64,000 nt of DNA from contig JAFYXM010000003.1 in the NCBI GenBank assembly GCA_017546175.1, positions 51,370-115,369 of the forward strand, read 5' to 3'. Both the position numbers and the translations under genes were made by a program. The notes below the pieces were generated by a model. The model was not told the DNA's origin. It did not search any database and was given only the letters and a program-made list of their open reading frames with translations. The stretch comes from Elusimicrobiaceae bacterium. Lineage in GTDB: Bacteria > Elusimicrobiota > Elusimicrobia > Elusimicrobiales > Elusimicrobiaceae. Below, one piece after another: positions 2,277-14,444 of this stretch. Within the stretch, counting starts at the first letter, position 1. The number at the start of each line of letters is the position of its first letter.

Positions 2277-2619
2277 AAAAATCCTCAAAGAGTATGAGTT
2301 GATCATACTTTTTGGGGATTTTTTCTTGTCGTAAGGCAGGACCATAGAAGTTTTTTGTAAGACCATATTGTTTATCGGTCATCATCATAAATGCACTTTT
2401 TCCTTGAGGAGGAGTTTGCGGACCTAACTGCTTGATGAGGGCTTGTGCTTGATGCATGGTAGGTAAATTGCGCACATACACGGAATATTGAAGCATAGTA
2501 AACCCATGATGAAGCAATAATTTTCTAAATCCTGCGTACCGCTTTCGCTGGACTTTGGTGTGCGTTGGTAAGTCAAAAACAGCTACTACCCACATAATAC
2601 GCCAACTATTGGGTTTCAT
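2275..2619 (-). CDS. cas2: CRISPR-associated endoribonuclease Cas2
   Basis: 114 aa with a Cas2-like ferredoxin-fold sequence (WVVAVFDLPT...YAGFRKLL...LQYSVYVR). Overlaps the cas1 stop by 14 nt. Confidence 0.9.
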   Translation of the reverse strand: MKPNSWRIMWVVAVFDLPTHTKVQRKRYAGFRKLLLHHGFTMLQYSVYVRNLPTMHQAQALIKQLGPQTPPQGKSAFMMMTDKQYGLTKNFYGPALRQEKIPKKYDQLILFEDF

Positions 2620-3589
2620 CTATAAATTGTCGTGTTTGCCACGATGTAACCGTAGAAGATTTTCCCGGACGAGAAGGAATATTAGGAAGTAGAAGTTTGC
2701 GACGGGGATCTTCCAAGCTGATACAATAACTGTTAATTGCCCAATCAATGCCATGAAATAAGCGGTATTCTTTTCCGGCAATTGAAACTGTACTAGACAA
2801 AAGAGAAGATAATATTTTCTTTTTTATATCTCTATCAAACGCGGAAATATTTTTTTGATAGAAGATATTCCAAACAATTTTATCTACTAAAAATCTAAAA
2901 GGCTCTATAAAATCATCAGCTAAATTAAAAGGATTGTCCTTACGGTGATGTCCGACCCCAAAATTTAAGCAAAGGCCCGCCCCCACCAAACCGCGTGCTA
3001 TAATAGCCCGAAGAACAGCATATCCGTAATTTAAAGATACATTAACGGGGTCCGTGGCGCCCTGTTTATCTCTAAAATCTACATTGGCATTTAAACTCTT
3101 AAAAAATGCTGGCCAATATATATGCGCGGCCTGTGCTTCTCTGCCGCTTTTATCGCCTAATTCAACATGACCAGCAATGATTTTTAAACGAGAGGACAAA
3201 TCGTCATCAAAAAAAGCCGCTGAGCAAGATTGACCATAAATTTTGGACTCTATTAGCTGTGACCACCATTTTTCAAATGTTTCTGTACTCAAGTACTTAG
3301 ACTGTAAAAAAGGTCGTTTAGCGCCGTCTATATTGGCTGCAACGGGCAAAGAAATGGCACAAGGCATATATTTCTCCCCCGCTGATACAATAACAGCACC
3401 GTTTTTGGATAACTCCTGATAAACAGCCAGTGACATAGTGATGCATGGATGAGATAAAATCAGCACAGCGATATCACAAGCGGCAATTAAATGCGTTTCC
3501 CCTGCTTGGGTAAATGTTATTTTAAGCCGCCCCGTATCAATAGAAATTTTAGCTTCTCTGTCTATACTGATTAAATGCTGTATGCTCAT
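2606..3589 (-). CDS. cas1: CRISPR-associated endonuclease Cas1 (type II)
   Basis: 327 aa with Cas1 motifs (LNYGYAVLRAIIARGLV, HHRKDNPFNLADDFIEPFR). 4-nt overlap with cas9. Confidence 0.93.
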   Translation of the reverse strand: MSIQHLISIDREAKISIDTGRLKITFTQAGETHLIAACDIAVLILSHPCITMSLAVYQELSKNGAVIVSAGEKYMPCAISLPVAANIDGAKRPFLQSKYLSTETFEKWWSQLIESKIYGQSCSAAFFDDDLSSRLKIIAGHVELGDKSGREAQAAHIYWPAFFKSLNANVDFRDKQGATDPVNVSLNYGYAVLRAIIARGLVGAGLCLNFGVGHHRKDNPFNLADDFIEPFRFLVDKIVWNIFYQKNISAFDRDIKKKILSSLLSSTVSIAGKEYRLFHGIDWAINSYCISLEDPRRKLLLPNIPSRPGKSSTVTSWQTRQFIDETQ

Positions 3590-6500
3590 CCGTTTTTAAG
3601 TTTTGCAATATCTTCACGAGAAGAAACCAAAGAGTAATTTTTGAGATTTGAAATATATGCCACGTTTCCAGTCGTTTCAGTAACCAGTCTTATTCCAACA
3701 CCGAATAAGGCAGCAAATTTCTGTACTTTATAGAACTGCTTATTTTCTTTATCAAACAAAATATCTCCTGCAAAGATTCTTACTATCCCTTCCGGAATTT
3801 GTTTTTGTTGTTGATATTTCCATAAGGGAATTAAGGCTACGCGTTTACCCGTTTTGGCATCAAAATCCATACAGGCATATCCATAATTCTGATAGCCTTT
3901 GCAATGTTGATTTCCTGATTTATCTTTGGAAATAACTTTTTTATCAGAATTTTCATCAAATTCACGTACACCGCGCCCCACCAAATACATATATTTCACT
4001 TTTTTTACTTTGTTTCCACGATAATAAATACCATCTAACGGATCATCTTTCTTTCCGCATAAAGCCTCTTCCTGCGTCATTCCTTTGGCTATACGCTCTT
4101 TAAATTGACGTAGAATTTCTTCTTTAATCGTATCTGTGAAAAGAAGTTTTTCTAAATTTTCAATTGTTTTCTTCTCATTGGCTTTCAAAAAACTACTCAG
4201 TTCTGCTCTTTTTACAAAACGTTCCACCCCCGTTTTATCTTTCACGACATTATAAGCCGTTTCATCAAAGAAAGCTCCGCTGGGATAGTGATCCGGTTTG
4301 TGCCATACCACATAATTTGTCAGGCGTTTTTGTACTTCTTGGCAAATTTTGGCATACTGAGGGATATTATCCAACATAAAGCCGGCAATATCCTTTTCGT
4401 GAATATGATTTCCGTTATCGTCTATGTATTCTATTTTGTGCAAAGTACCAAAATCCCGATGATGTTTTTCGGCACGTTGTAATAAAGACAAGTTGCACAA
4501 CCCAATGACCGCCGCATCTACGGCATGATGCCTATGATCACATCTCTTATTAAACTTTAATAACGTTTTTTGCTCAGCGCAGAATTTAGCAAAAGCTTTT
4601 TTCTTATCCTTTTCCGTTACAGGTTCTTCCTCTAAAGAAGATGAAAATACCTCAAAATCTTCTTTCAGTTCTTTCAAGTTGTGATAAGACAAACTTTCAT
4701 TAGAAAAAAGTTCCTTCCATTTTTTAGAATCAATTGATTTATTATCTTTATCTAAAAGTTCTTTTCCCTCCTCCAAACGGATATTGGGCAAAACTTTGTC
4801 AAACTGCAAATGACTGCGCAAATAGGCGGTCAGTTCTCCAAAGGTCGGCGTCACTTTCGGACAAACATCTTTACTCCAAGCTAAAACTATATCGCTGATC
4901 CATGCCGTCTGTTGTTTTTGACGATTGTTAAAATCATCTTTTAATTCGGAAGGAATCATTAATAAATTCTTAATCTTACGCAAAATACGCGCCCCTTTTT
5001 GGGAAGGTTTCCATTTTCGTTCTCTTTGGCAAAAATAACCTTTTTTCTCTTTAGAGTATAAAAGCCATAAATGTTGGACAAAGTTAATCAGCGGACTGTG
5101 TTTTCCAAAGGAAAAATCTTGAGTTTCCCCCTTTTTCTTTTTTTCTTTTATTTCCTTGCTAAATTCTCTATAATCATCTATATCTTCTTTAAATATCCAC
5201 TCGTAAGGAAGGCGATTAGATTTATCTTTATTTTTATCCGTAAAAGCCAAAACTTTGTTTTCAAACACATTCGGACCGGAAATATCTCCACGTTGCGGGA
5301 TAATGTGGTCCACTTGGGTCTGATGTTCGTCAAATGCCTGCTCAAAACTTATTGGATTACCGCTATAAGGGCAAGTTTTCTCCTGTTCCAACCACAACAA
5401 ATATTTTTCAATATTACGCGGTGTTACCAGTTTTTTATTCTCTTTTAATTCTTTAATAGCTTTTTGGCGTTCTTCGGCTTGTATTTTATTTTGACTTTCT
5501 AAAAACCGACGGCGGCTGAGTGAATTTTTCATTTCACGGGTCAGTTCCACCACCATTTCACTCGGCTGTCCGTATCTGTTAATAAGATAAGTCAAACTCT
5601 TGCGAAATTCTGTCAAAGCACGCAACATAACAGGGTCATTGATAGCCTCTTGGGCCTTAATAGCTTCTACACTGCGTAATTTACCCGAAGGACGTGGGTT
5701 GTGGTCAGCAAATTCTTGGATGATATCCGCCTCTTCTTCCCCTTGCAAAATTCTTTCCGTAAGCATTGTTAAAGCTTTCACACCATAGGCAGCACGGCCA
5801 GAAGTAAATTCTAAATTTTCTAAGCAATCTTTTTCCTTTAAGCATAAAACAAAATCTGTTCCTTGCTTTCTTTCTTCTGGACTGGAAAAAATATTTTTAG
5901 TTAAGGCATTAAATCTCTCTGTGATATAACTATTTGTATTATCAGAAATATCAGTTAAAGTAGTGATGTTGGCAAAAAACTCTATTACTAACTCTTGTAC
6001 CTTGTCCGTTAAATTGGACCATTCATTTAAAAAACCGATCTTTTCAAAAGCATAAGTGGTAGTATTTCCTTTTATTCCTTCTTTAGCCCCGTTTCGGCGA
6101 TCTGCTGTAAATCTAGCCGTCTGCGGTAAATTTAGCAAAGAATAAATCTTTTTAAAAGGAAAGCATAAAGTTTCGCTGGAATAATCGCTAGTAGCAGTGC
6201 GGATATGTTCAAAAAGATTGGCTTTTTGTGCCAAAGTCAAAGGGTGGGTTTCGCTCTCTCCTTTTTCTGCCCAACGCAAGTTGGCAATTTCTTTTACCAT
6301 GCGGTAAAGTTGATAGGCATTTTGGGCACAAGAAGCACGTTTTTCTTGAGGGAAGATAGAACAATTACCCACCGTTTCCAACTCCCATTTAATGGGACGT
6401 TGATAAAACATAGCCGAATAAAAAGCATCATGCAAAGCAATTTCTTTTTGATTAGGGAAATCGGGAAACATATTCTCACCCCAAACCTTATATGAAGTAT

Positions 6501-7143
6501 TTAATTGAGGATGATGCTTGCTCTGCTGCGCCCAAATTTTTTCAAATTCTTTTTCAATGGCTGTTCGGTATACAAAAGTACCGTCTTCTTCAATTTTACG
6601 CCAAGGCTGCCCTTTATCTGCCTTTTGTTTTTGCTCCCACAAAAGCTGCCCCAATGTCTTATCTTCACCTAAAAGAGTGTTGGTTTGCTTAATTTTTTTA
6701 CCAATTTTCCCCTGCTCCTCTTTTGATAAAAAACCTTTGTATCCTCTATTTTTAACAATATGAGAAAATACTTTCATCAGTTGCGGCAAGGAAATCTTTT
6801 CCTGCACCGCTTTTGCCCGAAGAAAAATAACATCTTCTTTATCCTGCTCTAAATCTTGCTTGGTAATGCCTAGTTGTTCAGCCATGTAGGTTAACTTTCG
6901 TAAACGAGCGGCTTTACGTTCAATTTGTCTACGAATTAACCGAGCAGAACGGCGAGAGGTATTTAAGGTTTCCATCTTTTTGGGCTCCACCGGTTCCCCA
7001 AAAATATAACTGTCCAAATGTTCTAAAGAAAGTATATTTCCCTTCTCATCTGTCTTATATACGGCAACACCTAAAGAGGAGGTCCCTAAATCAAACCCAA
7101 AACGATAAAAATTATCATAAGAAGTTAAAATTTCCTGTTTCAT
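3586..7143 (-). CDS. cas9: Cas9 endonuclease, type II-C architecture (1185 aa)
   Basis: RuvC-I FDLGTSSLGVAV (Asp18), Arg-rich bridge helix RRSARLIRRQIERKAARLRKL, HNH motif QVDHIIPQ...N..L, and RuvC-III HHAVDAAVIG. AAGGAG RBS at 7150-7155. No csn2 or cas4 in the locus. Confidence 0.95.
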   Translation of the reverse strand: MKQEILTSYDNFYRFGFDLGTSSLGVAVYKTDEKGNILSLEHLDSYIFGEPVEPKKMETLNTSRRSARLIRRQIERKAARLRKLTYMAEQLGITKQDLEQDKEDVIFLRAKAVQEKISLPQLMKVFSHIVKNRGYKGFLSKEEQGKIGKKIKQTNTLLGEDKTLGQLLWEQKQKADKGQPWRKIEEDGTFVYRTAIEKEFEKIWAQQSKHHPQLNTSYKVWGENMFPDFPNQKEIALHDAFYSAMFYQRPIKWELETVGNCSIFPQEKRASCAQNAYQLYRMVKEIANLRWAEKGESETHPLTLAQKANLFEHIRTATSDYSSETLCFPFKKIYSLLNLPQTARFTADRRNGAKEGIKGNTTTYAFEKIGFLNEWSNLTDKVQELVIEFFANITTLTDISDNTNSYITERFNALTKNIFSSPEERKQGTDFVLCLKEKDCLENLEFTSGRAAYGVKALTMLTERILQGEEEADIIQEFADHNPRPSGKLRSVEAIKAQEAINDPVMLRALTEFRKSLTYLINRYGQPSEMVVELTREMKNSLSRRRFLESQNKIQAEERQKAIKELKENKKLVTPRNIEKYLLWLEQEKTCPYSGNPISFEQAFDEHQTQVDHIIPQRGDISGPNVFENKVLAFTDKNKDKSNRLPYEWIFKEDIDDYREFSKEIKEKKKKGETQDFSFGKHSPLINFVQHLWLLYSKEKKGYFCQRERKWKPSQKGARILRKIKNLLMIPSELKDDFNNRQKQQTAWISDIVLAWSKDVCPKVTPTFGELTAYLRSHLQFDKVLPNIRLEEGKELLDKDNKSIDSKKWKELFSNESLSYHNLKELKEDFEVFSSSLEEEPVTEKDKKKAFAKFCAEQKTLLKFNKRCDHRHHAVDAAVIGLCNLSLLQRAEKHHRDFGTLHKIEYIDDNGNHIHEKDIAGFMLDNIPQYAKICQEVQKRLTNYVVWHKPDHYPSGAFFDETAYNVVKDKTGVERFVKRAELSSFLKANEKKTIENLEKLLFTDTIKEEILRQFKERIAKGMTQEEALCGKKDDPLDGIYYRGNKVKKVKYMYLVGRGVREFDENSDKKVISKDKSGNQHCKGYQNYGYACMDFDAKTGKRVALIPLWKYQQQKQIPEGIVRIFAGDILFDKENKQFYKVQKFAALFGVGIRLVTETTGNVAYISNLKNYSLVSSREDIAKLKNG

Positions 7144-7248: not shown

Positions 7249-7294
7249 CAAAAAATATTTAGAGATGGATTTTATTTTTTCAATCCATCTCTAA
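7249..7294 (-). terminator. Rho-independent terminator after the HTH-WYL gene
   Basis: Perfect 13-bp inverted repeat TTAGAGATGGATT / AATCCATCTCTAA (7259-7271 / 7282-7294), followed on the minus strand by ATATTTTTT. Confidence 0.75.
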
Positions 7295-7308: not shown

Positions 7309-8235
7309 TTATATCTTTTTTTTCTTAGCTTGATAACTGGCCAATATTGTTTCTATTTGCTTGGATAGTTCCGTCGGTTCTTGCACCATAATATGCGGCA
7401 GCCACGCCAAAATGGTGGGCAAAATCTCTTCGTACTTACCTGTAAAACACTCCAAAACAAGACCGTCTTTGGCTGATTTTTTGACTACTTTTTGTTTTGG
7501 GAAGTACTCCTTCTTTTCAAAATAAGGGGCAACTTCGGGGTCTACAAGCAGTTCCACTCGTTTATCGCGCTTATCCTCAAACCATACGGAGGCACTTTCT
7601 TCCAAAATCTTTTCTATCTTTTTGGGCCGTTTGAAGGAAACACCCGTGGGCTTGAGTTCTTTAATTTTATCCAAGCGGAGTTTTAAAATCACATCATCTT
7701 TACCAAGGGCAAGCAAATACCAAAAACCGTCAAACCAAGCGATTTTAAGCGGAGAAATATCTCTGCCCGACAATTTGGACTTATCATACACAATCGTCAA
7801 TTTTTCCTGCTTTTTAATAGCTTTTTCTATCAGTTTACTGTGGGTATCGTCTAAAAAAGCCTGTCCTTTAGGGAGTTTAATGTAAAAGGGGTTTTCTTTA
7901 TCGTTCTGCAAAATGCGGTCCCTCAGGCTGACATAGGTTTCTTGGAAACTTCCCCCCAAAGTACCTGCAATACTGGACAAAAGGGCCAACATGGCGGCTT
8001 CTTTGGCGCTGAGTTGCAGTTTCTGCAAGGAATACCCTTCCACAAAAGCGTACTCCCCTTTACTGGGGTTAGCGATAGGGAAACCCGCACTTTCCAAAAT
8101 CTTTATATCGCGCTGAATGGTGCGCACATTTACCATGAGTTCATCGGCAATATCTGCCAAATACACTTCGCCTTTATCAAACTCGCCTAAAATATACATC
8201 AGACGACTGATTTTATTTAATGTATCCCCTAGCAT
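7309..8235 (-). CDS. HTH-WYL (YafY/PafC-like) transcriptional regulator
   Basis: N-terminal wHTH (ADIADELMVNVRTIQRDIKILESAGFPI), central WYL domain (LTIVYDKS...RDISPLKIAWFDGFWYLLALGKDD...LRLDKIKEL), and a C-terminal WCX-like extension. Confidence 0.85.
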   Translation of the reverse strand: MLGDTLNKISRLMYILGEFDKGEVYLADIADELMVNVRTIQRDIKILESAGFPIANPSKGEYAFVEGYSLQKLQLSAKEAAMLALLSSIAGTLGGSFQETYVSLRDRILQNDKENPFYIKLPKGQAFLDDTHSKLIEKAIKKQEKLTIVYDKSKLSGRDISPLKIAWFDGFWYLLALGKDDVILKLRLDKIKELKPTGVSFKRPKKIEKILEESASVWFEDKRDKRVELLVDPEVAPYFEKKEYFPKQKVVKKSAKDGLVLECFTGKYEEILPTILAWLPHIMVQEPTELSKQIETILASYQAKKKKI

Positions 8236-8269
8236 AAAGCCCCCTTGATATGTTTTGTATATTAAAGCA

Positions 8270-9469
8270 TTATTTCTCTTTCTTTGCTTTCTTTTGCCAA
8301 GGTTTGGGCTCGTTGGAGGCTTTTACAACACCTAACGGAGTCAGTTTGACCAAGATTTTCACCAAGTCTTTTTGGTTTTCCATTACCTCGTCAATATTCT
8401 TATACGCGCTGGGGGCTTCGTCTAACAGGCCTTGCTCGTTCATGCGGTGCACAATGCCTTGGCTGTTTAAGATTTCCTGCTCGTGGGCCAAATCTAAATC
8501 TTTCATGGCTCTGCTGCGCGACATGCACCGCCCTGCCCCATGGGAACAAGATTGCAAAGAACTCTCGTTTCCTAAGCCCTGCACAATGTAGGAGCTCGTT
8601 CCCTGAGAACCGGGGATAATGCCCGTCGTATTTTCGCGTGCCAAAGTGGCCCCTTTGCGGTGCACCCATACTTTGCGGTTGTAATGCTCTTCCGCCGCGG
8701 CGTAGTTGTGGTGGATATTAATTTCCTGTACAAACTCCGCTTGCGGAAATTCTTCCAAAAACACCTTTTTGATAGACGTGGCAATCATTTTGCGGTTTTC
8801 AAAGGCAAAATCCAAGCAGAGTTTCATTTCATTAATATAATCGCCTGCTTCTCGTGTACCGATAGGAAGAAAAGCCAAATCTTGCTTGGCGATTTCTTCT
8901 TGCTTAAACATAGTGCAGAGTTTAACGGCTTTGTCGTTGTAATACTCGGCTACCTGTTTGCCCAAGTTGCGGCTGCCGCTGTGAATCATAAACCAAATGT
9001 GCCCGTCACTGCCGCGCTGAATTTCTATAAAGTGGTTTCCCCCACCCAACGTGCCGATTTGCTTTTGGGCGGAGAAAAATTCCCTTTTACATACTTCCGT
9101 CTTATTCCAACGGGTCAAATCCTGAAAAAGCGGGTTTTCCTGCGCTTCTTTATGGTGAGTAAACCCTACCGGCACGCGGTCGTAGATTTTATCTACAATG
9201 GCCTGCACTTTATCGCGCGTAATATCCGTAAGGCTCGTCTGTACGGCCAACATACCGCACCCGATATCCACCCCTACCATGTTGGGAGAAATGGCATTAT
9301 CTAAGGCCACTACCCCGCCAATAGGCATACCATAACCGCAATGGGCATCGGGCATCAAGCACACATTTCCCACCAAACAAGGGTGCTTAGATAAGTTTTG
9401 CACCTGTTGCATAGCCGCAGGCTCTAAATTTTTACACCAAGATAAAATGTTTTCTGCTAATTGTTCCAT
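8270..9469 (-). CDS. rtcB: RNA-splicing ligase RtcB (3'-phosphate/5'-hydroxyl RNA ligase)
   Basis: 399 aa with all metal/GMP-His motifs present: MPDAHCGYG, GGGNHFIE, IHSGSRNLG, NIHHNYA, SCSHGAGR. Confidence 0.95.
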   Translation of the reverse strand: MEQLAENILSWCKNLEPAAMQQVQNLSKHPCLVGNVCLMPDAHCGYGMPIGGVVALDNAISPNMVGVDIGCGMLAVQTSLTDITRDKVQAIVDKIYDRVPVGFTHHKEAQENPLFQDLTRWNKTEVCKREFFSAQKQIGTLGGGNHFIEIQRGSDGHIWFMIHSGSRNLGKQVAEYYNDKAVKLCTMFKQEEIAKQDLAFLPIGTREAGDYINEMKLCLDFAFENRKMIATSIKKVFLEEFPQAEFVQEINIHHNYAAAEEHYNRKVWVHRKGATLARENTTGIIPGSQGTSSYIVQGLGNESSLQSCSHGAGRCMSRSRAMKDLDLAHEQEILNSQGIVHRMNEQGLLDEAPSAYKNIDEVMENQKDLVKILVKLTPLGVVKASNEPKPWQKKAKKEK

Positions 9470-9479
9470 AATTCATTCC

Positions 9480-9944
9480 TTATACACCTAGTATTTCTAT
9501 TTGGTCTCCATCTTTCATGACAAATTCTGTCCAAGCAAATATATCATCAAGCATACTATCTATTTCTTTATGATCGCTCCATACAGCATCAGGGTAATTG
9601 GTTAAACTATATGTATAATCATAATCGATTTCTTGCTTTACCTGTTGGACATAATCATACATATCCTTAAACGAATTAAAACGAACGAGTTTTCGCGCCT
9701 CATTGAGTAGTTTTAGCCAATCTTGTTTTTTTAATGCATAGCATTCATATATATCTAATCCGCTAAGATCTATTACTATTCCATAAGCAACTGCCAAAAA
9801 TAAGAAATCATCTAGATTGATATAAAGTTGATTTAATCTTCTATCATCCGAAGGGTAACAGTACAATACAATATAGTCGGTAGTATTTCTTTCTTGATTC
9901 AGCTTTTTACTTTTTGGTTTAAAAACTAGATTATTGTTCGTCAT
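9480..9944 (-). CDS. hypothetical protein (154 aa), first gene of the rtcB operon
   Basis: The ORF-track frame was trimmed to the ATG at 9944, which is preceded by AGGAAG. It lies 10 nt upstream of rtcB. I recognise no motif. Confidence 0.6.
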   Translation of the reverse strand: MTNNNLVFKPKSKKLNQERNTTDYIVLYCYPSDDRRLNQLYINLDDFLFLAVAYGIVIDLSGLDIYECYALKKQDWLKLLNEARKLVRFNSFKDMYDYVQQVKQEIDYDYTYSLTNYPDAVWSDHKEIDSMLDDIFAWTEFVMKDGDQIEILGV

Positions 9945-9970
9945 AAGACTTTTTCTTCCTAATCTATAGT

Positions 9971-9994
9971 AAAAACCAAGGGAAAGACTCCCTT
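9971..9994 (-). terminator. terminator-like hairpin immediately upstream of the hyp154 RBS (possible attenuator)
   Basis: On the minus strand: AAGGGA-GTCTT-TCCCTT followed by GGTTTTT. Sits in the leader of the rtcB operon. Confidence 0.35.
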
Positions 9995-10097
9995 TCCACC
10001 CTAGCACGCACTTAAGCGCTTCCTAGGCAGTGGAAAGGTGCATACTTAGAATCCTCTCCTAGGCAGGACTTCCACAATAGTCTTTCCATTGGCACAT

Positions 10098-10134
10098 CAA
10101 AAAGGATAGCCGATCTCTAGGAATCGGACCTTTT
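10098..10134. terminator. bidirectional terminator-like hairpin flanked by an A-tract and a T-tract
   Basis: AAAAAGG-ATAG-CCGAT-CTCTAGGA-ATCGG-A-CCTTTTT. A second ATCGG copy at 10137-10141 offers an alternative pairing partner. Confidence 0.4.
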
Positions 10135-10199
10135 TGTATCGGAGCAGAGACCAGGTGTATGCAACCCTGTGCTAACCCCGACACTTATATCGTAGCATA

Positions 10200-10271
10200 C
10201 GTACGCGACAGCGTATGGTCGTATTAAAAAATATTTTTAAAAAATTTATCACGACCTACTGTTGTCGCGTA
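10200..10271. promoter_or_regulatory. 22-nt-arm imperfect inverted repeat around an AT-rich core; candidate operator with back-to-back divergent promoters
   Basis: GTACGCGACA (10200-10209) pairs perfectly with TGTCGCGTAC (10262-10271), and GGTCGT (10216-10221) with ACGACC (10250-10255). The core is ATTAAAAAATATTTTTAAAAAATTTATC. Candidate plus-strand promoter: TTATCA (10245-10250) - 18 nt - TACTAA (10269-10274). Candidate minus-strand promoter: GTGATA (10251-10246) - 18 nt - TTTAAT (10227-10222). Confidence 0.5.
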
Positions 10272-10280
10272 CTAATGTTA

Positions 10281-10628
10281 TGATAGATATATGAGTAGCA
10301 AAGCGTGGAGATAAAACCTACAGACCGAAGCGCTTGCTACCCAAAAAGATAGGTTTTATAGTAACTCTGTGCAAGTAGAGATGGAGATCTTCTATATTCC
10401 CTATTTAAAAGGCAAAAGGCGGGCTAGACTTGCCAACAGACACGGCTTGCGTAAGCGTGTGAGGCATTTTTAGTTCACCTTTAACCTAAGGGGTGTTAGG
10501 TATTGGCAGTTCTGCTTAACAGTATTTCGGGCACCCGCCCGATCCAGAGCCATGGGGAACAGCACTCCTATAAGCGCTCGGGTTTTACTTAGAGCAGTCT
10601 GAGATACTGCCTAGCACCCTTTTTATTT
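10281..10628 (+). ncRNA. candidate structured RNA or long leader upstream of the NTase operon, ending in a U-tract
   Basis: No ORF of 60 aa or more on either strand. Multiple complementary segments: 10294-10304/10330-10339, 10310-10319/10349-10358, 10439-10447/10452-10459, 10491-10497/10611-10617, 10504-10509/10605-10610, 10511-10518/10588-10596, and the hairpin CGGGC-ACCC-GCCCG at 10527-10540. CTTTTTATTTT at 10618-10628. The 5' end is a guess from the candidate promoter. Confidence 0.4.
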
Positions 10629-10663
10629 TAGAGCTTTATCGCACAAAAACTTATCATACAATT

Positions 10664-11425
10664 ATGAAAGAGAAGATCATTAAAAAATTAGAAGAACTGG
10701 AAAAAGAGCACCATATCAAAATCTTTCACGCGGTGGAATCGGGAAGCCGTGCGTGGGGGTTCGCATCGCAAGACAGCGATTATGATGTCCGCTTTTTGTA
10801 TTATCACCGCCCCGAGTGGTATTTTTCGGTTTCAAAGCAAGCAGATAACCTTGTGCAAATGCAAGAAAACAATTTACTGGATTTTGCCGGCTGGGAACTG
10901 AAAAAAACTTTGCTTTTGCTTATCAAGGGGAATATGTCCTTATATGAGTGGATACATAGCCCTATTGTCTATAAACAAAGCAAAGAATTTGATGCTTTCC
11001 AAGCACTTGCCCAAGAGTTCTACAATCCCAAAGCATTAATGTTTTCATATGTAGGGCTAGCAGAAAACAACTGCAAAGCCTATGCCGACAGAGAAAAGCC
11101 AAAACTTAAAAAGTATTTGTACATTTTGCGCACTTTAGCGGCTTGCCACTGGATAGAACAACGGAAAACTCCTCCCCCCATAGAAATGGATAAACTGAAG
11201 GAAGTTTTCCGCCACGAACCGCTTATATGGGACTTCTTAAACAACTTGATTGAGGAGAAAAAGAAAGGGACAGAGCTGGGCGTTATAGATTCCCCTGTGC
11301 TTATTAACCGGTGGATAGAAGAACAACTATCCTATTATAAGAAGTTAGCCGACAGGTTGCCCGACTCGGTAAAAGATACGACTCTTTTATCAAACTTCTT
11401 TTATAAGACAGTCATGGAGAGATAA
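10664..11425 (+). CDS. Pol-beta superfamily nucleotidyltransferase, RlaP-like (RNA-ligase-associated NTase, COG3541-like)
   Basis: 253 aa with NTase motif ESGSRAWGFASQDSDYDVRFLY (GS...DxD) and a helical C-terminal region. Neighbours rtcB. No clear SD before the ATG. Confidence 0.7.
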   Translation: MKEKIIKKLEELEKEHHIKIFHAVESGSRAWGFASQDSDYDVRFLYYHRPEWYFSVSKQADNLVQMQENNLLDFAGWELKKTLLLLIKGNMSLYEWIHSPIVYKQSKEFDAFQALAQEFYNPKALMFSYVGLAENNCKAYADREKPKLKKYLYILRTLAACHWIEQRKTPPPIEMDKLKEVFRHEPLIWDFLNNLIEEKKKGTELGVIDSPVLINRWIEEQLSYYKKLADRLPDSVKDTTLLSNFFYKTVMER

Positions 11426-11426
11426 A

Positions 11427-11729
11427 ATGAAAACGATTTTATTTGATATAGACGGTACATTGGCAGACTGAAACGGACGGGAAAAGTTCTTAAAACAAGA
11501 AAAACCTGATTGGAAGAACTTTAACGCTAAAGAGGTAAAACAAGATATACTAAACTCCCTCAGAACCCAAGGAAAGGATATTCTTTTTACCATAGATGAC
11601 CGCCAAAGTGTAGTGGATATGTGGCGTGCTAATGGTATTACTTGTTTACAATGTAAAAAAGGAATTATTAGCTTTTATTTTTCGGTAAAATATACAATAA
11701 GCATAATAAAAACATCTATGAGGGTATAG
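11427..11729 (+). pseudogene. decayed HAD-family (T4 Pnk-type) polynucleotide 3'-phosphatase: in-frame TGA at codon 15 and apparent internal deletion
   Basis: MKTILFDIDGTLAD-TGA-NGREKFLKQEKPDWKNF...GKDILFTIDDRQSVVDMWRANGITCLQCKKG. HAD motif I (DxDGT) and motif IV (DD) plus the VVDMW..G..C.Q tail are recognisable. The roughly 60 aa that normally carry motifs II/III are missing. Confidence 0.6.
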
Positions 11730-11731
11730 TA

Positions 11732-12703
11732 ATGTCTTTATTCTTTCTTTTGGCTTTAATCGGAGGATGGTGTCTTATTTTTTGGATAGCCACCCTAATG
11801 GGCAGAAAAGATTTTGCAGTCAATCTTTTTCCGATATTTTTTTTCGTGGTAATAGCCTATTTGTGGGTAAATGCCAACAAGGATACTTATTGGTTCCGAG
11901 GTATTTTCGCAAAACCTGCCGGTAAGCCAAAAGATTTTGTACTACCCCCCAAAAAAACTATCTCTGACGAAACTACCTCCTATTACAGAAAAATAAAAGA
12001 GGCATTAAAATCAAAAAGCGATATTTGCTTTGAATACACCAATATGCAAGGCCAAACTGCCACAAGGCATGTAAGGCCCACGGAAATTTATTTTGCCGGA
12101 TACGGAAAAGTTTACATAAAGGGATTTGATTTAGATAAACAAGAGGAGCGTAATTTTAAGGTGGAAAAAATGAAAAATTTACAAATCCTTTCAAGTAGCC
12201 AAACAAAGAGTACGGATAAAAACTCCGAGTTTCTTTTAACATTAAAAACTTACTCAAAAACCATTTTTATCTTAATCGGCATACAGGCAAGCGGCAAGAG
12301 TTCTTTTGCCAATAGATTTCTGGGAAATTGCACCCACATCAGCCTAGACCAGTTAAACACAAGACGAAACGAAGAAACGGCCTTAAAAGTGGCTCTTCTG
12401 ATAATGAAAGAAAACTGTGTAATAGATAACACCAACCCCACTCGCCAAGAACGCCAAAAATACATTGATTTGGGGAAAAAAGCCGGTTATAAAATAGTGG
12501 GGCTCTATTTTAGCTCCGCAATTAACGAATGTATTAAACGCAACGACAAACGCTTCGGCAAGGCAAAAATACCGCTCAAAGGCCTGCTTGCCACCGCCAA
12601 ACGCTTGCAACAACCGTCTTTGCAGGAAGGGTTTGATGAACTATACTATGTAAAAATAGAAAACAAAGAATTTGTTATTTCCAAATGGGACGAAACACTA
12701 TGA
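11732..12703 (+). CDS. membrane-anchored WYL domain fused to a P-loop polynucleotide-kinase-like (AAA_33) domain
   Basis: Two N-terminal hydrophobic helices (LFFLLALIGGWCLIFWIATL, LFPIFFFVVIAYLWV). WYL-like module ICFEYTNMQGQTATRHVRPTEIYFAGYGKVYIKGFDLDKQEERNFKVEKMKNL. Kinase features: Walker A ILIGIQASGKSSF, then SLDQL, IDNTN and R-rich lid motifs. RBS GAGGG. Confidence 0.75.
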   Translation: MSLFFLLALIGGWCLIFWIATLMGRKDFAVNLFPIFFFVVIAYLWVNANKDTYWFRGIFAKPAGKPKDFVLPPKKTISDETTSYYRKIKEALKSKSDICFEYTNMQGQTATRHVRPTEIYFAGYGKVYIKGFDLDKQEERNFKVEKMKNLQILSSSQTKSTDKNSEFLLTLKTYSKTIFILIGIQASGKSSFANRFLGNCTHISLDQLNTRRNEETALKVALLIMKENCVIDNTNPTRQERQKYIDLGKKAGYKIVGLYFSSAINECIKRNDKRFGKAKIPLKGLLATAKRLQQPSLQEGFDELYYVKIENKEFVISKWDETL

Positions 12704-13455
12704 AATTTGATGAATTTGATAAAAAAATGAGAAAGTTTGAGGAATCGTTGGATCAGGTTATCCCTTCCACTTCCTTTATGGTGGCCCGCCTTGACGGTAA
12801 GGGTTTTACCAAATTAACCAAGAAAGATATGGTTTTGGAAAAACCCTTTGATATCCGATTCAGGGACGCCGTCATCAATACGATTAAATATCTCATGAAC
12901 GGATATTTCCAAATTGCATATGCATACAATGAAAGTGATGAAATTTCTCTTTTATTCAAATCCAATGCAGATAAATTCGGCCGAAAAGTACGCAAATATA
13001 ATTCTATTCTGGCAGCCGAAACCAGTGTGCATTTTTCCCAACAAATCGCACAAAACGCCATTTTTGATTGCCGCATGATTGCCTTGCCCGATATAGAAGC
13101 CGTACAAGATTATTTTGCGTGGCGGCAGACTGATTCCAACCGAAATTCCGTTCTGGCGCATTGTTATTATAAACTGGTAGCCGATGGAAAAACCCCGCAG
13201 GAGGCCGCCGCTTACTTACGCAATTTGCCTTTTCGCGATAAAGTACAGCTTTTGGCTCATTTTGGCATGGAATTAAACGATATTCCCAAGTGGCAACTAT
13301 ACGGAAGTGCCGTCTATTGGCAAGAAAATATCAAACAAGGGCTTAACCCTGCCACCCACACTTCCCAACAGACACTGCGCCATACGCTGACGGTAAATTA
13401 TGACTTACCCGTCGGGGAAGAGTATCGCCGTTTTATTACCCGACAAATTACTTAA
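12700..13455 (+). CDS. Thg1-like protein (TLP), tRNA 3'-5' nucleotidyltransferase
   Basis: MKFDEFDKKMRKFE..., ARLDGKGFTKLTK, EKPFDIRFRD, YNESDEISLLF, FGRKVRKYNSILAAETS. The start was chosen at the ATGA overlap with the upstream stop (12700-12703). Confidence 0.85.
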   Translation: MKFDEFDKKMRKFEESLDQVIPSTSFMVARLDGKGFTKLTKKDMVLEKPFDIRFRDAVINTIKYLMNGYFQIAYAYNESDEISLLFKSNADKFGRKVRKYNSILAAETSVHFSQQIAQNAIFDCRMIALPDIEAVQDYFAWRQTDSNRNSVLAHCYYKLVADGKTPQEAAAYLRNLPFRDKVQLLAHFGMELNDIPKWQLYGSAVYWQENIKQGLNPATHTSQQTLRHTLTVNYDLPVGEEYRRFITRQIT

Positions 13456-13465
13456 CAGGATAATT

Positions 13466-14371
13466 ATGACAAAAAAGAATGTAGAAAAAGAATCTTCCTT
13501 TGAAGGAAAAAAAGATGAGGCTTTAGGAGATCTTTGGGATTGGTTAAATATCAGACGAGAGGATTTGCCTCATTATATCAACTATATTGCAGAAAATGCT
13601 TTTTCTCTGACTTCTGCCAAAAAACCTTTGTTTCAAAATCCCTATAAGCTTTCACAAGTATATCCCCGTTGGCCGGTAGATATGCGCTTTTTATTAACCA
13701 CTACTCATGATCCTAAAAAAGAAACGCGCAATTTGAACTCTTTTTGTATTTTAATGAGAGGTTATCCTAATATTTTAAAAATTACTGAAGTTTTCCCATG
13801 GAAAAGCGGGGTAGAGGGATATGTTAGCGGATCGTTAAATGATGGGCCGTCGGTTGATTTTCTCGCCCCGTTATTTTATCGGGAAGAAGACAAATATCAT
13901 ATAAATATTTGGGTTACGGTCTATCTGAGTGCCATAGCCCTAAAAATGCAGCCAGCTTCGGAAGAAATATTCAATTTTTCCGATGGAGAGCTATATGAAA
14001 TAATGCTAAAAGATTTTTTGAAAGAAAATCCAAGCAAAACAAAAAAAGATTTTCCTCATATTAGGGTATCTACCAAAAATATGACTGCTTTTCTGCCTAC
14101 TGAAACAACCTCTCTCTACCAATACAGAGCAAAAATCTTGAGAGTATTACAGATGGATCCTTTTGAGGATATAGAAATGCACAGCCTATTAGTATTGCTG
14201 ACAGGAAAGTCTCCTAAAAACTCATTAACAATCAATTTGTATGTTAAGAAAAGTGACCTTAATGGATATACCCCCCAAAAAGGTGATTTTATAGAGGGAA
14301 TTTTATGGATGTTTGGCACAACCCACTTTATGACGGGTGCAGTTCCAACAAGCAATGATGTTGTAGAGTAA
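13466..14371 (+). CDS. hypothetical protein (301 aa), last gene of the plus-strand repair operon
   Basis: The ORF-track frame was trimmed to the ATG at 13466 (AGGATAA upstream), 10 nt after the TLP stop. No recognisable motif. Confidence 0.6.
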   Translation: MTKKNVEKESSFEGKKDEALGDLWDWLNIRREDLPHYINYIAENAFSLTSAKKPLFQNPYKLSQVYPRWPVDMRFLLTTTHDPKKETRNLNSFCILMRGYPNILKITEVFPWKSGVEGYVSGSLNDGPSVDFLAPLFYREEDKYHINIWVTVYLSAIALKMQPASEEIFNFSDGELYEIMLKDFLKENPSKTKKDFPHIRVSTKNMTAFLPTETTSLYQYRAKILRVLQMDPFEDIEMHSLLVLLTGKSPKNSLTINLYVKKSDLNGYTPQKGDFIEGILWMFGTTHFMTGAVPTSNDVVE

Positions 14372-14419
14372 ACATATCAAGGTCACAAGTTTATATTATC
14401 CGTACAACCATTTAAAAAG

Positions 14420-14444
14420 GCACTTCATCTGAAGTGCTTTTTTG
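14420..14444 (+). terminator. Rho-independent terminator closing the island
   Basis: GCACTTCA-TC-TGAAGTGC (inner pair probably open) followed by TTTTTTG. Confidence 0.75.

Follow-up and report, generated by a model that had tools for sequence, protein, structure and literature searches.

Results

A predicted RNA repair island of two divergent operons

This analysis concerns a 64,000-nt stretch of DNA from a gut bacterium of the Elusimicrobiaceae (Elusimicrobiota), referred to throughout as the window, and within it an island in which genes for the RNA ligase RtcB, the nucleotidyltransferase RlaP, a Pnk-type polynucleotide kinase and a Thg1-like 3'-5' polymerase (TLP) lie together with the gene for an HTH-WYL regulator. 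The genes form two divergent operons on either side of a common control region, and the island is bounded by intrinsic terminators. Its features are as follows.

7249-7294, minus strand: intrinsic terminator of the hyp154-rtcB-WYL operon, located upstream of the promoter-like site for cas9
7309-8235, minus strand: HTH-WYL regulator, 308 aa, HTH_11-WYL-WCX by Pfam
8270-9469, minus strand: rtcB, encoding a 399-aa RNA ligase (PF01139)
9480-9944 (to 10007 in a GTG-extended reading), minus strand: hyp154, uncharacterised, immediately upstream of rtcB
9968-10185, minus strand: leader RNA A, a conserved structured RNA that precedes hyp154-rtcB, with a long closing helix and then a U-run
10205-10221, plus strand: predicted operator site 1 (GCGACAGCGTATGGTCG), an exact match to the 17-mer consensus
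10252-10268, minus strand: predicted operator site 2 (GCGACAACAGTAGGTCG), inverted, with three mismatches to the consensus
10405-10650, plus strand: candidate leader RNA B, which precedes RlaP, with a long closing helix GGTGYTAGG...CCTAGCACC and then a T-run
10664-11425, plus strand: RlaP nucleotidyltransferase, 253 aa (PF10127)
11427-11729, plus strand: HAD_PNKP phosphatase pseudogene, with an in-frame TGA and an internal deletion
11732-12703, plus strand: 323-aa fusion protein, with two hydrophobic helices followed by a WYL domain and a Pnk-type kinase (WYL and AAA_33)
12700-13455, plus strand: TLP, 251 aa (Thg1 and Thg1C), whose start overlaps the kinase stop by 4 nt
13466-14371, plus strand: hyp301, uncharacterised and mostly beta-strand, the last gene of the plus-strand operon
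14414-14443, bidirectional: intrinsic terminator that closes the island and reads AAAAAGGCACTTCATCTGAAGTGCTTTTTT

The open reading frame listing bears out the gene coordinates, the spacing and the two divergent operons given in a preliminary description of this DNA: gaps of 10 and 34 nt separate hyp154, rtcB and the HTH-WYL gene, and the plus-strand genes (RlaP, HAD relic, kinase, TLP and hyp301) follow one another at 1, 2, -4 and 10 nt. The two terminators said to bound the island are equally legible as hairpins, with the one at 7249-7294 reading AGAGATGGAT...ATCCATCTCT followed by a T-run. The spacer between the operons, described earlier as 0.7 kb free of open reading frames, indeed holds none of at least 42 aa between 10008 and 10663, but it is not empty, for it contains conserved operator sites and structured RNA. 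Judged against the curated cut-offs of Pfam, every family assignment proposed at the outset (RtcB, RlaP, WYL-AAA_33, Thg1 and HTH-WYL) scored above threshold. Both of the claimed WYL modules are present, one in the regulator and the other in the kinase fusion, and the catalytic motifs that had been called intact in RtcB, the nucleotidyltransferase, the kinase and the Thg1-like enzyme can be read in the translations. For the comparisons described below we fetched 231 loci, which are cited by L-number.

The regulator and its predicted operator

The regulator consists of an N-terminal HTH_11 domain (34.5 bits), a central WYL domain (36.4 bits) and a C-terminal WCX domain (27.8 bits), all over their cut-offs, and it matches the PADLOC model for CRISPR-associated WYL proteins at 5e-31. 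Its named homologues come from Elusimicrobiaceae, Endomicrobium and Candidatus Avelusimicrobium. A recent duplication linking its WYL domain with that of the kinase was considered and rejected (BLASTP E = 7.2).

In every sampled lineage, the promoter zone of the regulator operon contains an 18-bp dyad, GCGAC-N8-GTCGY (consensus GCGACARCRTAKGGTCG), which we predict to be the operator. By comparative prediction, the protein shares with HTH-WYL-WCX regulators such as BrxR, CapW, PafBC and DriD a palindromic operator at its own promoter. Fourteen of the 17 occurrences of the 8-mer core of this dyad in 217 kb of sequence fall inside promoter zones, which make up 1.6% of that sequence (p = 5e-23), and among four lineages without detectable DNA homology the proportion is five of six (p = 1e-9). 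The exact 17-mer is present in 12 of the 231 fetched loci, where it is sited only in the promoter zones of WYL/RtcB operons. A metagenome scan with the 17-mer CCTTTTTGAWGTGCCAA returned almost exclusively chance occurrences, L111 being the sole true homologue among the matches listed.

Within the window, the operator is confined to the exact site at 10205-10221 and the site with three mismatches at 10252-10268, a variant that also occurs in L001 (twice) and in L100. These two sites are inverted with respect to each other and lie on either side of an AT-rich core that separates the divergent operons; a scan of the window found no operator near cas9. The arrangement in relatives extends the association to the plus-strand genes. 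In L001 these genes are split into two units and the operator is duplicated, with one copy before the Thg1 unit and one before the RlaP unit, so the plus-strand genes carry the regulator's site as well, and in L020 and L230 the operator is found between RtcB and the kinase-TLP pair. The earlier proposal that both operons are under WYL control thus gains support from a conserved predicted operator placed between them. Roughly 10-15 nt separate the ends of the sites from TGATA-type -10-like elements downstream, so a bound regulator would overlap the -35 position. BrxR and CapW are repressors and PafBC is an activator; by analogy, the predicted overlap with the -35 position fits a repressor of the BrxR/CapW type, though an activator like PafBC is conceivable.

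Enzymes of the plus-strand operon

The kinase of the island is a rare fusion protein. Pfam identifies a WYL domain at residues 85-152 (4e-9) and an AAA_33 domain at residues 179-277 (45.7 bits, 1e-11), and among solved structures the mammalian PNKP kinase domain matches best (1.8e-7, residues 176-309). The motifs GIQASGKS, LD and DNTNP are all present, and the invariant residues comprise those of the P-loop, the catalytic Asp, DNTNP and the lid arginines (G183, S187, G188, K189, D206, R211, D232-P236, R270 and R274). Scores against full-length equivalogs fall below their cut-offs (TIGR01663, the bifunctional PNK-3'Pase, 47.4 bits against 502.8; TIGR04075, bacterial Pnkp, 27.3 against 750), with the alignment covering the kinase domain only, and more distant relatives in databases are bifunctional polynucleotide phosphatase/kinases. 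The kinases usually found next to TLPs are stand-alone proteins of 150-210 aa. The N-terminal 165 residues of the island protein, comprising two hydrophobic helices and the WYL domain, are confined to nine clusters of 73-99% identity and were found in none of 80 TLP loci surveyed (see below). Both hydrophobic segments are retained in all five orthologues, even where their sequence has diverged. A phage origin for the fusion was considered and dropped, as viral contigs contained no relative of it. We also observed that positions 11983-13557 of the window are 98.7% identical to L002 and about 96% identical to L013, and that the transmembrane-encoding part of the kinase gene differs strongly from L002, a mosaic that suggests recombination within the kinase gene.

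The TLP encoded immediately downstream matches both Thg1 (PF04446, 100.6 bits, 8e-29) and Thg1C (PF14413, 46.8 bits, 4e-12). It contains the motifs RLDGKGF and SDEISL, and residues D32 (RLDG) and D80/E81 (SDEISL) are invariant in five TLPs that are 47-100% identical. Other bacterial TLPs carry out templated 3'-5' repair of 5'-truncated tRNA, and are reported to prefer it to G-1 addition (PMC3061083).

At the head of the operon, RlaP scores 237.9 bits against PF10127 (cut-off 23, E = 2e-70) and matches the nucleotidyltransferase family PHROG 14344 at 4e-62. Its Pol-beta GS...DxD motif reads ESGSRAWG...DSDYDV. The gene lies 1.2 kb from rtcB in the window and is also beside RtcB in L001, L100 and L226. 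The family, which was reportedly named by Burroughs and Aravind in 2016 (NAR), has a published linkage to RNA ligase genes and extends 3'-OH ends by one or two nucleotides (PMC12776372).

Between RlaP and the kinase, the segment that had been called a phosphatase relic proved to be just that, namely a dead HAD_PNKP gene. Its frame reads MKTILFDIDGTLAD*, with an in-frame TGA, and it keeps the DIDGT motif. Relative to L001 it has suffered an internal deletion of about 195 nt, which leaves it about 65 residues short of the intact orthologues (146-152 aa). Intact HAD_PNKP (PF25109) genes are found in L001, L020, L100, L103, L226 and L230.

The last gene, hyp301, had no match in Pfam, NCBIfam, PADLOC, PHROG or a sequence-profile search. 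Its family includes 274 homologous clusters, some with an N-terminal DUF192 or Leu/Phe-tRNA protein transferase domain. Its AlphaFold2 model is confident (pLDDT 89) and consists mostly of beta-strands. Comparison of the fold with the PDB and BFVD gave nothing significant, the best result being a weak similarity to OB-fold/beta-barrel proteins at TM < 0.3. A relationship to the DUF192 protein of L105 was considered and rejected, and linkage of hyp301 to TLP or RtcB was seen in no other fetched locus.

RtcB and hyp154

RtcB joins 3'-phosphate or 2',3'-cyclic-phosphate ends to 5'-OH ends in a reaction that depends on GTP and Mn. The island protein matches PF01139 over its full length (372.7 bits, cut-off 27, E = 4e-111) and contains DIGCG, HSGSR and SHGAGR, which we take to be the metal-binding Cys/His and nucleophilic His motifs of the family (DIGCG/HSGSR/HGAGR). 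Its identity is 84-99% among related Elusimicrobiota loci and 53% in Endomicrobium proavitum.

For the product of hyp154, searches of Pfam, NCBIfam, PADLOC and PHROGs gave no match, and its AlphaFold2 model (pLDDT 53.6) is unusable. The family is narrow, with seven homologous clusters, and is encoded directly upstream of rtcB wherever the context is known, including the orthologues of L100 (90% identity) and L103 (45%). Sub-threshold matches to the ssRNA-binding matrix protein of Bornaviridae appear in five of the seven members (best E 0.005 for PF16520; 0.06 for the PDB profile). This similarity is probably due to chance, and it is the sole lead for hyp154.

Structured RNAs in the control region

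The spacer as a whole folds far better than shuffled sequences, whichever strand is taken (z = -6.8 for the plus and -5.8 for the minus strand). The clearest element within it is leader A, the 217 nt on the minus strand between the operator and the ribosome-binding site of hyp154, which has a fold z-score of -4.2. It is 88-90% identical to its counterpart in L103, whereas the flanking proteins are 45-61% identical. The consensus of three sequences has 47 base pairs, 13 of them with compensatory double changes, and pairing extends to 92.9% of its cells. In 500 shuffles these values were never attained, and slid controls yielded one to four compensatory pairs. Nine of the 13 compensatory pairs belong to one 18-pair hairpin. 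A covariance model built on leader A identified a fourth, divergent copy with the same architecture in L111 (51 bits). Four parts make up this architecture: an AAAAAGG/CCUUUUU stem that encloses a variable hairpin, a conserved GAUGU linker, a GCCAA/UUGG closing helix that encloses a variable multi-hairpin domain, and a U-run some 25 nt ahead of the start codon.

Leader B, on the plus strand, is also conserved (91% in L013, 78-93% in L001). Its consensus fold has 70 pairs, and most of the variation preserves pairing, with one compensatory pair only, such that we regard this structure as a candidate with weaker support than leader A. Either leader could be an attenuator-type leader or a separate small RNA.

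A search of the whole window with Rfam at gathering thresholds returned nothing, and the spacer searched at E up to 10 gave chance-level miRNA matches only. Equally little came from the corresponding stretches of L103 and L100, searched at permissive E-values. Identification of the spacer as a Y RNA/YrlA, a T-box or a riboswitch was accordingly dropped, there being no credible Rfam match in the window or in its L103 and L100 counterparts. In Salmonella, the layout of the corresponding region is rsr-Y RNA-rtcBA. In L100 (5110-7292), hyp154-rtcB is preceded on its own strand by a gene for a DUF2828/DUF7788 protein of 523 aa and by a non-coding stretch of 611 nt, and this segment has no sequence match in Rfam or the PDB. 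The order DUF2828-noncoding-hyp154-rtcB recalls the Salmonella arrangement by analogy, a Y RNA at this place being backed by no test.

Co-conservation across genomes

We sampled ten contexts of the regulator in Elusimicrobiota, and RtcB lies beside regulator orthologues (49-98% identity) in eight of them. The RtcB-adjacent contexts differ in their flanks, as listed here with the identity of the regulator to that of the window.

Window (reference): cas9, type II-C
L013 type (98%): cas9
L001 (87%): cas9, with an inserted ankyrin gene
L100-102 (86%): without cas genes; RlaP, a hypothetical gene and HAD; DUF2828 protein
L020/L230 (76-77%): cas9; compact, with WYL and RtcB, then kinase, TLP and HAD on the opposite strand
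L226 (71%): type III-A cas genes
L103 (61%): type I restriction and mobile-element genes
L105, Endomicrobium proavitum (49%): type I-C cas genes

HAD_PNKP is present in seven of these eight contexts and RlaP in four, with a fragment of it in one more. The remaining two regulator homologues (58% and 39%) lack RtcB and lie beside restriction-type genes (type I restriction or SNF2-Mrr).

The kinase-TLP pair was followed in a second survey, of 80 Thg1-like loci from species-representative genomes, mostly of Clostridia. In 72 of the 80, the TLP has a same-strand Pnk-type kinase directly next to it, which reproduces the PNK-Thg1 association predicted in 2010 by Anantharaman, Iyer and Aravind (PMC2904730). 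RtcB lies within 10 kb in 16 of the 80 loci and RlaP in two. In four loci from Lachnospiraceae-type Clostridia (L038, L042, L071 and L097), a distant RtcB (31-34% identity) is encoded directly upstream of kinase-TLP in one contiguous same-strand unit. At L006 (1863-6609, from a bioreactor metagenome), kinase-TLP is followed by an RNA 2'-phosphotransferase gene (Tpt1/KptA, PF01885), with Macro-domain and Fic genes nearby; judged by its gene content, this locus is another variant RNA repair cassette.

Close relatives of the island lose parts of it. In the L013 lineage, a 750-bp deletion takes most of RlaP and the start of HAD, and hyp301 is reduced to its two ends; in the L002 lineage, kinase-TLP alone remains at the same chromosomal site. 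The place of the window's cas9-WYL-RtcB segment is taken in L002 (9400-10000) by two tRNA-like genes ending in CCA, a terminator and a MerR gene, which suggests that the site is a hotspot for integration or recombination. The L002 terminator resembles the sequence at 14407-14443 of the window. The gene set therefore recurs and is not a chance juxtaposition, as the counts for RtcB-regulator (8/10) and kinase-TLP (72/80) indicate, but the full set is found in one narrow clade only. Since the modules recur separately and close relatives lose genes, we conclude that the unit of conservation is the module rather than the whole island.

CRISPR and defence neighbourhood

G+C content is 36-42% in the first 14 kb of the window, which holds a CRISPR array, cas2-cas1-cas9 and the island, versus 43-47% in most of the remainder, and relatives of the island adjoin integrases, resolvases, restriction systems and CRISPR loci. 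The array (1-2150) has about 33 repeats of 36 nt with 30-nt spacers, giving a period of 66; two neighbouring spacers are identical, and the units at 1253-1351 and 1319-1417 read alike. On the minus strand, 2606-7143 encodes Cas1 (327 aa) and a 1185-aa Cas9 with Cas9_a, HNH_4 and RuvC_III domains, a layout that suggests type II-C. A promoter-like site at 7228-7200 belongs to cas9, and this site and the terminator together separate cas9 from the island.

The adjacency to cas9 pointed out in the preliminary description is not specific. RtcB-WYL cassettes abut three CRISPR types, namely II-C (window, L001 and L020), I-C (L105, 10665-18924) and III-A (L226, 9602-16918, which includes a Card1-like CARF nuclease), and other relatives abut type I restriction genes or mobile elements, with no CRISPR neighbour in L100 or L103. 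Association of WYL regulators with CRISPR and other defence loci is well known (PMC4012209). A role for the island's regulator in controlling cas9 found no support, given the intervening terminator, the location of the predicted operator and the persistence of the regulator beside RtcB where cas9 is absent.

Discussion

A predicted response to RNA damage

The most probable account of this locus, to which we assign a probability of roughly 0.65, is that it is a horizontally mobile RNA-damage response island whose two divergent operons share one control region. Gene content, family membership, co-conservation, conservation of the predicted operator and RNA covariation are the observations on which this account is built, and from them we infer what the enzymes do in vivo, which ligand is sensed, whether regulation is by repression or activation and which RNAs are the natural targets. 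According to this view, the HTH-WYL-WCX protein would bind the two predicted 18-bp sites just upstream of the -10-like elements of both promoters, and its activity would shift upon binding of a nucleic-acid ligand, by analogy with other WYL regulators. The hyp154-rtcB-WYL operon would be self-regulated and would supply RtcB for the sealing of 3'-phosphate or 2',3'-cyclic-phosphate ends to 5'-OH ends, with the second operon contributing enzymes that heal and rebuild RNA ends. Rebuilding of 5'-truncated tRNAs in the 3'-5' direction by Thg1-like enzymes requires 5'-phosphorylated ends. The Pnk-type kinase would likely provide them by converting 5'-OH to 5'-phosphate, which the translationally coupled TLP could then use for templated 3'-5' rebuilding of 5'-truncated tRNA. 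At the other end, RlaP would add one or two nucleotides to a 3'-OH, and the HAD enzyme that has been lost here may once have cleared 3'-phosphates ahead of RlaP. We suspect that the WYL domain and membrane anchor of the kinase itself localise or gate 5'-phosphorylation, and that the leader RNAs, with their terminator-like helices, may add a second, RNA-level control.

Several observations weigh against this account. The two arms are mismatched in their chemistry: RtcB needs 3'-phosphate and 5'-OH ends, and the kinase, phosphatase and RlaP would make 5'-phosphate and 3'-OH ends, for which the island contains no 5'-phosphate ligase. The same mismatch with RtcB is noted in the RlaP preprint (PMC12776372). 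Since kinase-TLP and phosphatase-RlaP would give ends that RtcB cannot join, the arms are best viewed as parallel routes under shared control rather than as one pipeline, with kinase-TLP and phosphatase-RlaP likely acting on acceptor-stem ends without a ligase. In addition, the gene set is eroding, with HAD dead in the window, RlaP deleted in the 96%-identical L013 lineage and the RtcB arm lost in L002, and hyp154 and hyp301 are missing from several relatives. The two regulator homologues that lie beside restriction-type genes without RtcB imply that the regulator family is not dedicated to RtcB. Finally, the covariation in leader A comes from three sequences and one divergent match, and its structure was derived from the same alignment.

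Some of these points invite the reading that the island is not a functional whole at all, and that RtcB-WYL, PNK-TLP and RlaP-HAD are self-sufficient cassettes gathered in a defence-island hotspot under a generic regulator of the BrxR/CapW type. L002-L005 and the majority of the 80 TLP loci do have kinase-TLP by itself, L100, L103 and L226 have RtcB-WYL-HAD-RlaP but no kinase-TLP, and the regulator both matches the PADLOC model for CRISPR-associated WYL proteins and has homologues next to type I restriction or SNF2-Mrr genes. Independence of the cassettes would, however, leave unexplained why the operator sits between the two operons in the window and between RtcB and kinase-TLP in L020 and L230, why it is duplicated in L001 in front of both the Thg1 and RlaP units, and why RtcB is enriched near TLP in unrelated phyla (16/80). 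We therefore consider this reading unlikely, although it deserves to be kept in view.

The defence setting raises a different question, which is whether the island mainly reverses RNA damage inflicted by its own or neighbouring defences, such as the collateral RNases of type III CRISPR systems or toxin-antitoxin systems, or targets the RNA of invaders, so that proximity to CRISPR would be functional. The occurrence of RtcB-WYL cassettes next to types II-C, I-C and III-A, the last with its Card1 nuclease, speaks for such a role, as do the established ties of WYL regulators to CRISPR and defence (PMC4012209) and the PADLOC match. However, no cleavage of host RNA is known for Cas9 (type II-C) or for type I-C systems, L100 and L103 have no CRISPR neighbour, and in the window a terminator and a separate promoter-like site precede cas9, near which there is no operator; a primary function in immunity thus appears very unlikely. 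A role in routine tRNA maturation, such as G-1 addition to tRNA-His or ligation after intron removal, is harder still to credit. Thg1 enzymes and RtcB do have maturation roles in eukaryotes and archaea, a subject reviewed in PMC10275265, but close relatives differ in which of the island's genes they carry at this chromosomal site, and low G+C, mobile and defence neighbours, a pseudogene and a dedicated sensor-type regulator are not what one would expect of housekeeping functions. The preference for 5'-truncated tRNA over G-1 addition that is reported for bacterial TLPs (PMC3061083) points in the same direction.

Returning to the RNA-damage response, one can imagine a more elaborate version in which sensing has two layers. 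The leaders would serve as sensors or decoys, with ribotoxin cleavage or the binding of RNA fragments relieving their terminator-like helices, and the membrane WYL-kinase would be a ligand-gated RNA 5'-kinase that licenses rebuilding by the TLP only when damaged RNA is present, possibly at the membrane, where imported tRNase toxins enter. For now, we hold this version to be quite improbable.

Relation to known systems

The island is related to several known systems without conforming to any of them. It shares with the Rtc systems of E. coli and Salmonella an RtcB core and a dedicated gene for a ligand-sensing transcription factor adjoining rtcB, and with the Salmonella system in particular the presence of non-coding RNA just upstream of rtcB (the yrlBA Y RNAs in that organism, where rsr is also present). 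Unlike those systems, it lacks RtcR, a sigma-54 AAA+ activator with a CARF domain, and has in its stead an HTH_11-WYL-WCX protein and a predicted sigma-70-style palindromic operator; none of its seven open reading frames matches the 3'-phosphate cyclase RtcA, and its upstream RNA lies outside every Rfam family, Y RNAs included. The PNK-Thg1 operons (PMC2904730) likewise have a P-loop kinase immediately upstream of, and translationally coupled to, a TLP, sometimes with an RNA ligase nearby. The island differs from them in the extension of its kinase by two helices and a WYL domain (nine clusters; 0/80 TLP loci) and in the placement of the pair under a predicted HTH-WYL operator. In the rtcB-rlaP-rtcA locus of Pseudomonas (PMC12776372), the RlaP gene also adjoins RtcB, with a proposed role in restoring lost 3' nucleotides. 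Here, in contrast, RlaP belongs to another operon, on the strand opposite to rtcB, along with a dead phosphatase, a kinase and a TLP, and both RtcA and RtcR are missing.

With respect to its regulator, the island resembles the systems of BrxR, CapW, PafBC and DriD, which have the same HTH-WYL-WCX architecture, a regulator gene inside the probable target unit, a palindromic operator (predicted in the present case) and a location in defence islands, but its predicted targets are RNA repair enzymes rather than BREX, CBASS or DNA-damage genes. With T4 Pnk, bacterial Pnkp and mammalian PNKP it has in common the PNKP-type P-loop, catalytic Asp and DNTNP of the kinase and, in relatives, the PF25109 HAD partner. 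In contrast to those proteins, kinase and phosphatase are separate genes, with the phosphatase a pseudogene in the window, and the island has no adenylyltransferase or ligase domain and no Hen1.

Implications

Every enzyme family in the island is already known, as are PNK-Thg1 operons, the linkage of RlaP to RNA ligases and the presence of WYL regulators in defence islands. Of the full combination, which the preliminary description did not recognise as an experimentally characterised system, two links, PNK-Thg1 (PMC2904730) and RlaP-ligase (PMC12776372), had been published. Our searches of the searchable literature found no HTH-WYL regulator that replaces RtcR and has a defined operator, and no fusion of two transmembrane helices and WYL to PNK, leader RNA or hyp154-RtcB partnership, although Burroughs and Aravind 2016 may list some of these contexts. 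With the families and main pairwise associations known and the organism uncultured, the advance is an incremental one unless the regulatory layer turns out to sense RNA damage.

It is this regulatory layer that makes the locus worth attention. The locus puts a bacterial Thg1-like polymerase and RlaP, along with RtcB, under one predicted sensor-type regulator with a precise 18-bp operator. If sensing were indeed to take place in two layers, a physiological trigger would for the first time be defined for bacterial Thg1-like polymerases. More broadly, the island suggests that a WYL protein can hold the position that the CARF protein RtcR occupies in enterobacteria, and a natural fusion of WYL to a polynucleotide kinase, together with a covarying leader RNA, may provide reagents for studying how cells detect broken RNA.

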